Of a stretch of 64,000 bases of DNA, positions 44,034 to 44,556 are shown one piece after another (positions within the stretch are counted from its first letter, which is position 1; the number at the start of each line of letters is the position of its first letter). A program made the position numbers and the translations under genes. The stretch covers positions 265,852-329,851 of the forward strand of contig CAZNOH010000001.1 in NCBI GenBank assembly GCA_964574655.1, written 5' to 3'. The notes under the pieces were generated by a model. The model worked only from the letters and a program-made list of their open reading frames with translations, was not told the origin of the DNA and made no database searches. Source of the DNA: an uncultured Candidatus Saccharibacteria bacterium (lineage in GTDB: Bacteria; Patescibacteriota; JABMPQ01; JAQVVF01).

Positions 44034-44107
44034 TGGTCCTGGCCGGGTTCGAACCGGTGACCTTTCGCTCCGCAGGCGAACGCTCTATCCAGCTGAGCTA
44101 CAGGACC
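44034..44107 (-). tRNA. tRNA-Arg (anticodon GCG)
   Basis: Reverse complement GGTCCTGTAGCTCAGCTGGATAGAGCGTTCGCCTGCGGAGCGAAAGGTCACCGGTTCGAACCCGGCCAGGACCA; anticodon loop CTGCGGA; perfect cloverleaf. Confidence 0.85.
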
Positions 44108-44187
44108 TAAAGGTGCAAAATGTCAATGTGTTGTGTGAAGGTGCGAGAAGAAATAAATTGGTTGTTTTGCAAAAAGTGTTAACTTTT

Positions 44188-44263
44188 TGGTAGGCCTGAT
44201 CGGGCTCGAACCGACGACCCTCCGCTTAGAAGGCGGACGCTCTATCCACTGAGCTACAGGCCC
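44188..44263 (-). tRNA. tRNA-Arg (anticodon TCT), CCA encoded
   Basis: GGGCCTGTAGCTCAGTGGATAGAGCGTCCGCCTTCTAAGCGGAGGGTCGTCGGTTCGAGCCCGATCAGGCCTACCA; anticodon loop CTTCTAA. Confidence 0.85.
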
Positions 44264-44295
44264 GAAAATCTGAATGAATAAACTGAATTTCTGGG

Positions 44296-44369
44296 TGGGC
44301 GTGACCAGATTCGAACTGGCGACCATCCGCTTCGAAGGCGGATACTCTATCCACCTGAGCTACACGCCC
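44296..44369 (-). tRNA. tRNA-Arg (anticodon TCG)
   Basis: GGGCGTGTAGCTCAGGTGGATAGAGTATCCGCCTTCGAAGCGGATGGTCGCCAGTTCGAATCTGGTCACGCCCA; anticodon loop CTTCGAA. Confidence 0.85.
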
Positions 44370-44386
44370 TAATGAGAACTGATGTC

Positions 44387-44460
44387 GTGACCCCAGCGAG
44401 GTTCGAACCCGCGACCTACGGATTAGGAATCCGTCGCTCTATCCAGCTGAGCTATGGGGC
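44387..44460 (-). tRNA. tRNA-Arg (anticodon CCT)
   Basis: GGCCCCATAGCTCAGCTGGATAGAGCGACGGATTCCTAATCCGTAGGTCGCGGGTTCGAACCTCGCTGGGGTCA; anticodon loop TTCCTAA. Confidence 0.85.
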
Positions 44461-44480
44461 CTAAAAGGAACAAGAATGAA

Positions 44481-44556
44481 TGGTGGGCCTGGCCGGATTC
44501 GAACCGGTGACTTCTCGCTCCGGAGGCGAGCGCTCTATCCACTGAGCTACAGGCCC
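44481..44556 (-). tRNA. tRNA-Arg (anticodon CCG), CCA encoded
   Basis: GGGCCTGTAGCTCAGTGGATAGAGCGCTCGCCTCCGGAGCGAGAAGTCACCGGTTCGAATCCGGCCAGGCCCACCA; anticodon loop CTCCGGA. Confidence 0.85.

Follow-up and report, generated by a model that had tools for sequence, protein, structure and literature searches.

A predicted operon of five arginine tRNA isoacceptors adjoining arginyl-tRNA synthetase and arginine-catabolic genes in a small Patescibacterial genome

Background

Why should a bacterium with a small genome line up five arginine tRNA genes, each with a different anticodon, when tRNA genes that serve the same amino acid as a rule lie dispersed or interspersed with other isotypes? The question is raised by positions 44032-44556 of a 64-kb stretch of contig CAZNOH010000001.1 (contig positions 265,852 to 329,851; hereafter the window, numbered from its first nucleotide) of an uncultured Patescibacterium. 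The window covers approximately 10% of the genome, being 64 kb of a contig of ~654 kb; its GC content is about 32% and its gene set is typical of ultra-small bacteria. The reading that we favor, at a probability of roughly 0.7, is that these genes form a dedicated polycistronic tRNA-Arg operon of a small, low-GC Patescibacterium, which supplies the complete and sole set of arginine tRNAs and is situated beside a neighborhood of arginine-related genes. Below we present the structural, comparative and contextual evidence for this proposal and weigh it against the alternatives.

Structure of the tRNA-Arg array

ARAGORN detects seven tRNA genes in the window, of which five are tRNA-Arg genes on the minus strand at 44032-44556; the other two, tRNA-Gly(CCC) and tRNA-Thr(CGT), are located elsewhere. 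In the order of transcription the array comprises tRNA-Arg(CCG) (44481..44556), predicted to read CGG; tRNA-Arg(CCT) (44387..44461), for AGG; tRNA-Arg(TCG) (44294..44369), for CGA and, by wobble, CGG; tRNA-Arg(TCT) (44188..44263), for AGA and AGG; and tRNA-Arg(GCG) (44032..44107), which carries G37 and would read CGU and CGC without inosine. Each anticodon occurs once. All five genes score between 63 and 69 bits with the Rfam tRNA model (66.7, 65.5, 67, 68.8 and 63.4 bits, respectively), as against a gathering score of 29. A preliminary description of this region, drawn up from the bare sequence, had recognized five co-oriented tRNA-Arg genes whose anticodons jointly cover the six arginine codons; ARAGORN and Rfam agree, ARAGORN assigning all five to arginine and placing them on the minus strand, which that description had left unstated. 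The spacers given by the ARAGORN coordinates (19, 17, 30 and 80 nt) are close to the 14-80 nt stated there. CCA is encoded only in the CCG and TCT genes, the CCT gene lacking it and the TCG and GCG genes ending in ACC followed by C. The longest spacer, between the TCT and GCG genes (44108..44187, minus strand), contains the blocks AAAGTTWACRCTTTT, CAATTTATTTCTT and TTGCACCTTT, which alignments show to be retained in relatives, and has no match in Rfam.

An alignment of 15 genes, from the window and two relatives, yields a cloverleaf of 20 base pairs, 12 of which show compensatory double changes, and the sole non-standard pairs are two G-A pairs at one position of the anticodon stem. The clean cloverleafs previously reported are thus borne out, with almost no pair broken. 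In E. coli, recognition by arginyl-tRNA synthetase (ArgRS) depends on A20, C35 and an A or G discriminator at position 73. When the five genes of the window are checked for these elements, as had been proposed earlier, all of them display C35, the GGATAGAG D-loop with its A20, and an A discriminator; the D-loop TGGATAGAG, which supplies A20, is invariant, and the discriminator is A or G in the genes of the relatives.

Independent Logan contigs assembled from raw runs (L258/L259) hold the same tRNA-Arg genes, and the array is therefore not an assembly artefact. Nor is it a chance arrangement, since the same five anticodons recur in the same order in two related genomes (L001/L094 and L003; see below); if a genome is assumed to have about 45 tRNA genes, the probability that five adjacent genes are exactly the five arginine species is approximately 1 in 1.2 million. 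The preliminary description had also allowed that this might simply be the only tRNA-Arg set of the genome within an ordinary mixed cluster. The cluster at 44032-44556 contains no isotype other than arginine and is flanked by a predicted promoter, a predicted terminator and protein-coding genes, and hence it is not mixed; that it is the sole set is very probable. A permissive Rfam search of 38000-45500 recovered, besides the five tRNAs, only sub-threshold, tRNA-shaped chance matches, and neither a T-box nor a riboswitch.

Transcription and processing

Some 38 nt ahead of the first tRNA gene, a consensus scan detects a promoter-like site (TTGACA, a spacer of 17 nt, TAAACT; 44594..44622, minus strand). 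A homologous site is present at the same distance in L001, and the -35 and -10 blocks are retained in an alignment of the window with L001 and L003. Directly after the last tRNA gene the scan identifies a 10-bp intrinsic-terminator-like hairpin, AAACAACATC-TTT-GATGTTGTTT, followed by a run of T (44008..44030, minus strand). L001 and L003 have exactly the same hairpin sequence, and a compensated variant, AAAGACATCTCTGATGTCTTT, is found in a fourth lineage, L257. Between window and L001, 43 of the 45 alignment columns that follow the GCG gene and 19 of the 22 in the first spacer are identical, whereas four-fold degenerate sites of the flanking genes differ at 35-53%. This indicates that the non-coding parts of the array are under constraint.

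With co-oriented genes, spacers of 17-80 nt, a promoter-like site upstream and a terminator-like site downstream, the array has the features expected of a polycistronic operon, and it looks like a transcription unit of its own with a predicted sigma-70-like promoter and an intrinsic terminator. A single promoter would drive all five isoacceptors and the terminator would end the transcript. By standard tRNA biology, RNase P would then cut the 5' leaders, 3'-end processing would free the individual tRNAs, and the CCA-adding enzyme would complete the three that lack an encoded CCA. Beyond the terminator and ahead of CtlX, two overlapping TTGACA -35 boxes (44002 to 43964, minus strand) constitute a further promoter-like element detected by the scan, apparently for the downstream arginine genes; the alignment shows this block to be homologous to the promoter upstream of the arginine deiminase gene in L001 and L003.

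Conservation in related genomes

Two relatives, L001 (GCA_028699085.1, the same genome as locus L094) and L003 (Logan SRR27710321), share with the window both the five anticodons and their order; arginine deiminase (ADI) and ArgRS come next, and the arrays are flanked by the same ABC-transporter and PALP (threonine-synthase-like) genes as in the window. Identity between the orthologous genes of window and L001 is 86% for CCG, 82% for CCT and 97% for TCT. L257 preserves a TCT gene, cut by the contig end, the GCG gene, the terminator, and then genes for CtlX (69% identical) and an ornithine aminotransferase (OAT; 83%), followed by a low-GC gene; L001 and L003 lack CtlX, OAT and a short formyltransferase-like open reading frame (ORF) at this locus.

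In more distant Patescibacteria (L131/L132 and L133), whose genomes have 40-43% GC, the gene order is a 182-aa ORF, PALP (47-48% identical to that of the window), ArgRS (42-43%) and ADI, with no tRNA gene near ADI-ArgRS and no GC contrast. A Saccharibacterial locus (L102; OZ246404.1, 624001-632000) has, at positions 3337-8000 of the locus, ArgRS and ADI as a pair, then an M29-like peptidase gene and, about 1.3 kb from ADI-ArgRS, an all-arginine array with the anticodons ACG, TCG, TCT and CCG, the last of these genes being truncated where the locus ends. As L131/L132 and L133 have the ADI-ArgRS pair without tRNA genes, and L102 also has the pair, we conclude that the pairing predates the array and is an old Patescibacterial feature, and that tRNA-Arg genes have gathered beside it in at least two distant lineages.

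The 182-aa ORF (36646-37194, plus strand, in the window) is found beside the PALP gene in all five Patescibacterial lineages examined, at 45-81% identity, and has no match in Pfam, NCBIfam or among the sequences of the PDB. In a comparison of L001 (4594-7729) with L003 (2718-5841), only 4 of 153 four-fold sites differ in ADI, as against 51 of 213 in the adjacent ArgRS, and the ABC ATPase is also almost identical at such sites. This suggests recombination within the cluster, with a breakpoint probably between ADI and ArgRS.

Decoding capacity

In 36 host genes of the window the arginine codons are CGT 49, CGC 26, CGA 56, CGG 26, AGA 328 and AGG 56, with AGA as the major codon (61%). Because all six codons are in use, all five tRNAs have work to do. 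The GCG species would read CGU and CGC, UCG would read CGA (and CGG), CCG would read CGG, UCU would read AGA (and AGG) and CCU would read AGG, and such a scheme, with G34, U34 and C34 sharing the CGN box, would need no A34-to-inosine editing by TadA. The presence of GCG where bacteria usually have ACG, as already noted in the preliminary description, holds: no ACG tRNA-Arg gene was found in the window or in the L001, L003 and L257 loci, and GCG and TCG are present instead. Likewise, none of the proteins encoded in the window (~10% of the genome) has a CMP/dCMP-deaminase domain. We predict that tadA and other tRNA-Arg genes are absent from the genome as a whole, and very probably the array is the complete and only set of the cell's arginine tRNAs. 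The locus offers a clear case for studying how bacteria do without inosine at position 34.

The arginine gene neighborhood

Immediately downstream of the array are ArgRS and arginine-catabolic genes that had escaped the preliminary description; within 6.2 kb follow genes for CtlX, OAT (on the opposite strand), ADI and ArgRS. CtlX, a putative citrullinase that would convert citrulline to ornithine (313 aa; 42988..43929, minus strand), scores 404.6 bits with NCBIfam NF046062, above the cutoff of 334. Its reading frame starts with an ATG after a Shine-Dalgarno sequence, a 313-aa database protein matches it exactly, and it carries the FPNN and HTN motifs that set CtlX apart from enzymes acting on guanidino groups (PMC9007349). 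The OAT-like class-III aminotransferase (41657..42925, plus strand) is recognized by Pfam Aminotran_3 (1.5e-90), and its best NCBIfam models are those of ornithine--oxo-acid transaminases, with scores under their cutoffs. The next gene encodes a divergent member of the ADI family (40245..41483, minus strand; Pfam ADI, 1.7e-63); NCBIfam arcA scores under the cutoff, and the translation contains the FTRD, HLD and C-terminal catalytic CMTCP motifs. ArgRS (615 aa; 38381..40228, minus strand; TIGR00456 argS, 386.9 bits, cutoff 261.65) starts 16 nt past the ADI stop codon and is 100% identical to a database protein of 615 aa (P0001), encoded on a contig of 654,272 bp. Its nearest relatives are 83-84% identical, one of them labelled by NCBI as a Patescibacteria group bacterium. 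The window thus belongs to the chromosome of a CPR bacterium with a small genome, and not to a phage or plasmid. Two other relatives of this ArgRS (P0007 and P0005) have neither ADI nor tRNA-Arg genes nearby. P0004 (675 bits) was considered as the nearest outgroup and rejected: at 739 aa it contains an internal duplication, it comes from a 2.4-kb contig, and it is about 50% identical and not a donor.

The tRNA-Arg genes, their charging enzyme and arginine catabolism are thus found at one chromosomal site. The adjacent ArgRS would charge all five tRNAs via the bacterial identity elements A20, C35 and A73, and the catabolic genes appear to encode a putative route from arginine via citrulline and ornithine to glutamate semialdehyde. 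The cluster does not match the classical arcABC(D) system: besides ADI, which is present, that system comprises ornithine carbamoyltransferase, carbamate kinase and an antiporter, none of which is encoded here or found elsewhere among the annotated proteins of the window. Co-regulation of the array and the arginine genes by arginine supply is plausible. An ORF of 180 aa (44712-45254, minus strand), consisting of the N-terminal domain of a formyltransferase only, is situated between the tRNA promoter and the ABC transporter, and is absent from this position in L001 and L003.

Comparison with other tRNA-Arg arrays and arginine loci

The preliminary description had called an array of this kind unusual, a judgment that stands in part. 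A scan of species-representative genomes for three tandem Arg-type D-arms returned at least 120 loci, which serve as examples and not as frequencies. Among the matches listed, at least 43 are arrays of three or more tandem tRNA-Arg genes; at least 28 of these repeat ACG alone, typically after a tRNA-Ser gene, at least 11 have two anticodons and at least three have three. Five anticodons are seen, among the matches listed, only in L094, the L001 genome, and hence only in the present clade. Against uniqueness stands L102, with its all-arginine array of at least four anticodons. A complete single-copy set of isoacceptors in an isotype-pure operon is therefore clearly uncommon and not unique. A pattern of three anticodon loops (CTCCGGA..TTCCTAA..CTTCGAA), not specific enough for so large a collection, was applied to metagenomes and matched at least 120 loci. 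Of the 123 loci scanned among the matches listed, three viral ones included, not one has two tandem tRNA-Arg genes, and all are chance matches. A separate observation concerns L110 (67-982; JAJPJO010000334.1, from a metagenome-assembled genome labelled Proteobacteria), which has six tandem tRNA-Arg genes with alternating GCG and CCG anticodons that are 76-89% alike; here too, as in the window clade, the genes with these two anticodons resemble close paralogues.

The tandem operons of Gammaproteobacteria (Shewanella, Aeromonas, Enterobacter) likewise consist of head-to-tail tRNA-Arg genes on one strand with short spacers and presumably yield one transcript. They differ in that ACG genes are repeated for dosage, usually after tRNA-Ser(GCT), whereas the window array has five anticodons in single copies, only arginine genes, and no ACG. 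The L102 array is closer to it, being isotype-pure, with four or more anticodons, and within 1.3 kb of ADI-ArgRS, but has ACG in place of GCG, another gene order, a divergent orientation relative to ADI-ArgRS with the M29-like peptidase gene in between, and no GC contrast. The tRNA array units of Tran et al. (2016; PMC4758250) comprise 20 or more tRNA genes of mixed isotype at two or more per kb. The window array shares the dense clustering and, with five genes of one isotype in 525 nt, falls outside that definition.

For its decoding scheme the nearest precedent is the Mycoplasma pneumoniae group, in which tRNA-Arg(GCG) and tRNA-Arg(UCG) replace the ACG/ICG species and tadA has been lost (Yokobori et al. 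2013, PMC3711424). As in the window, GCG and UCG are combined in a low-GC, reduced genome. There, an A34-to-G change in an ACG gene is thought to have produced the GCG gene, and the CCG species has been lost (PMC3711424), whereas the window retains CCG. The gene neighborhood resembles the arc cluster of Lactococcus lactis, argS-arcA-arcB-arcD1-arcC1-arcC2-arcT-arcD2 (PMC5300872, PMC7818446), in bringing an ArgRS gene together with arginine deiminase and a transaminase. In the window, CtlX and OAT take the place of ornithine carbamoyltransferase, carbamate kinase and the antiporter, ADI precedes ArgRS, and tRNA genes are present, whereas the Lactococcus cluster as described has none (PMC5300872, PMC7818446). 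The array is a variation on familiar tandem tRNA operons in which each ingredient has a precedent, and it does not overturn current understanding.

Duplication and gene conversion among the tRNA genes

How the five genes arose and stayed alike can be approached by comparing their stems. The TCT and CCG genes share an identical 5' half of 26 nt, GGGCCTGTAGCTCAGTGGATAGAGCG, as the preliminary description had stated in proposing duplication followed by anticodon switching. As a token of common descent this shared half is weak: none of the 15 compared genes varies in the D-arm, and even in unrelated arrays arginine isoacceptors are 65-92% alike. The mosaic sharing of stems across lineages speaks more strongly for the same proposal. 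The GCG gene of the window shares 89% identity with CCG genes and only 74% with its positional counterpart, the GCG gene of L001. L001 and L257 agree in the stems of their GCG genes, with GCGCCTG/CAGGCGC in the acceptor and CTGGT/ACCAG in the anticodon stem, and the GCG gene of the window has GGTCCTG/CAGGACC and TTCGC/GCGAA instead, with an anticodon stem that differs from the CCG gene of the window at one pair and from the L001/L257 type at four of five. The CCG genes carry the T arm ACCGGTTCGAAYCCGGC, as do GCG of the window and GCG of L257. The L257 gene is thereby a mosaic of an L001-type acceptor stem and anticodon arm with a window-type T arm, and the GCG gene of L001 has the T arm of its upstream TCT neighbor. 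In addition, the anticodon stem of the TCG gene in the window (TCCGC/GCGGA) is identical to that of TCT.

The simplest reading of these patterns is repeated segmental gene conversion among neighbors, including switches of the anticodon, and the array probably grew, and was kept similar, by duplication and such conversion. G37 is present in every GCG gene of the clade, as it is in the CCG genes, while the ACG gene of the Saccharibacterial locus has A37. With G37 and a CCG-type T arm, the G34 gene would, on the simplest reading, go back to a CCG-type and not to an ACG gene, unlike the ACG-derived GCG gene of Mycoplasma, and would have been rebuilt in the window lineage. The array thereby offers a clear case for studying how duplication, the swapping of stems and switches of the anticodon give rise to isoacceptor families and keep them alike.

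Alternative explanations

Several points weigh against the reading of the locus as a dedicated operon with the sole arginine set, beside arginine-related genes. That the set is the only one, and that tadA is missing, is extrapolated from 64 kb of ~654 kb. The promoter and terminator are predicted from consensus matches together with conservation. The adjacency of array and ArgRS is no proof of co-regulation, as the tRNA genes and the protein genes are parted by a terminator, and CtlX-OAT is followed in L257 by genes other than ADI-ArgRS. The argument for gene conversion draws on a mosaic pattern in a few sequences. Moreover, even tRNA-Thr(CGT) of the window and its counterpart in L001 are no more than 77% identical, so that the 74% identity seen in the TCG and GCG slots is not exceptional. 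Percent identity was considered as proof of paralogue replacement, and this baseline of 77% weakens it.

Horizontal acquisition, in which the tRNA genes, ArgRS and ADI, with or without CtlX and OAT, entered the ancestor of this low-GC clade as one foreign, GC-richer block and thereby supplied a whole module for arginine decoding and catabolism, is suggested by a strong contrast in composition that is also seen in relatives. The arginine stretch has a GC content of 41-45%, and GC at third codon positions (GC3) is 0.46-0.47 in ArgRS and ADI and 0.33-0.34 in OAT and CtlX, as compared to 0.25 +/- 0.04 in 36 other genes. ArgRS is 42-44% identical to the syntenic Patescibacterial enzymes and 44-48% identical to those of Bacteroidales; CtlX is 50-57% identical to Bacteroidota proteins and 27% identical to a CtlX-like gene of the syntenic L131 locus; and CtlX-OAT has a patchy distribution, being found in the window and L257 and absent in L001 and L003. 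However, the order of 182-aa ORF, PALP, ArgRS and ADI is common to distant Patescibacteria that have no GC contrast, ADI and ArgRS are paired in a Saccharibacterium too, and the ArgRS-ADI pair looks ancestral at this site. An AT-rich PALP gene (GC3 0.175) lies between two GC-rich ones, the 182-aa ORF (0.415) and ArgRS, and the four-fold divergence between window and L001 is equal inside and outside the stretch.

Polarized changes on the L001 and L003 branches also show no net loss of GC in the stretch, with 19 GC-to-AT against 21 AT-to-GC changes, and imply an equilibrium GC at four-fold sites of 0.48 compared to an observed 0.45 (0.25 compared to 0.16 in host genes); the counts are small and the outgroup is distant. 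As the stretch does not decay toward the host composition, its GC contrast is not a plain signature of recent transfer. There are no integrase or mobility genes, no flanking direct repeats or tRNA fragment, and no array of this kind in the phage records searched; a search for direct repeats that might represent att sites around the stretch found nothing beyond the tRNA family itself. Acquisition as a single block is therefore unlikely. Its partial version, with import of CtlX-OAT alone, is likely, and this pair may well be of foreign origin. We conclude that the ArgRS-ADI pair and the tRNA operon are, by the sequence comparisons, resident, and that their GC-rich state appears to be maintained, for a cause that is unexplained. 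These GC-rich arginine genes in an AT-rich genome pose a separate puzzle about local base composition. As to strand composition, GC skew is uniform and very strong (+0.2 to +0.35) over 1-64000, where nearly all genes are on the plus strand; in the arginine cluster, most of which is encoded by the minus strand, it drops to about 0.11.

A more ambitious proposal would make the tRNA-Arg operon, ArgRS and the catabolic genes of Patescibacteria one selected arginine module that is regulated as a unit by arginine supply, with its GC-richness actively maintained in an AT-drifting genome by selection or by repeated exchange of alleles between lineages, and with the CCG-derived G34 tRNA replacing ACG and TadA. 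We consider this improbable. If true, it would amount to a lineage-wide rewiring of arginine decoding, tied to arginine as a main source of energy and nitrogen. Apart from this proposal, an operon with exactly one gene per arginine anticodon, beside the cognate synthetase and catabolic genes, would exemplify in compact natural form how the decoding of one amino acid can be gathered at a single locus, and the locus is a case for asking whether ultra-small episymbionts living on imported arginine couple translation to the use of fuel.

The array might instead be a supplement to ordinary tRNA-Arg genes elsewhere, possibly including ACG with TadA, and serve, for instance, the adjacent CGN-rich genes. 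CGN codons make up 45 of the 63 arginine codons in ArgRS and ADI, as opposed to a host preference of 61% for AGA; the window covers only a tenth of the genome, and other bacteria do amplify tRNA-Arg genes in tandem. Yet amplified arrays elsewhere repeat one anticodon, whereas here each occurs once; the host genes use all six codons; and the order and content of the array are preserved in several species. The contig is ~654 kb long, and genomes of this size normally carry tRNA genes in single copy. A supplementary role is hence quite improbable.

Clusters of tRNA genes are frequent on phages and integrative elements, and integration often takes place at tRNA genes, but a phage or mobile-element cluster that came to lie beside the arginine genes by chance is close to refuted, as 0 of 50,697 phage records cover 80% or more of the array (the matches being single, generic tRNA-Arg similarities), three viral contigs that match the anticodon-loop pattern lack tandem arginine tRNAs, the neighbors are metabolic genes with no integrase, att-like repeats or phage genes nearby, and the position of the array is stable across species.

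Other features of the window

An ORF with a LAGLIDADG_3 homing-endonuclease domain (21779-22600, plus strand) ends 10 nt before lepA (22611-24395), and two ORFs upstream of it (19637-21252) have no match in Pfam. A release-factor-like protein with a baeRF/eRF1 domain (27448-28530, plus strand) adjoins tRNA-Gly(CCC) and tRNA-Thr(CGT) at 27086-27241, and the same pairing is found in L001. A class A RNase P RNA (6421..6932, plus strand; Rfam RF00010, 178 bits) follows just downstream of an RNase H/RVT_3-like ORF (5818-6258). The match spans 512 nt, compared to the 367 positions of the class A model, and therefore includes about 145 nt of insertions.

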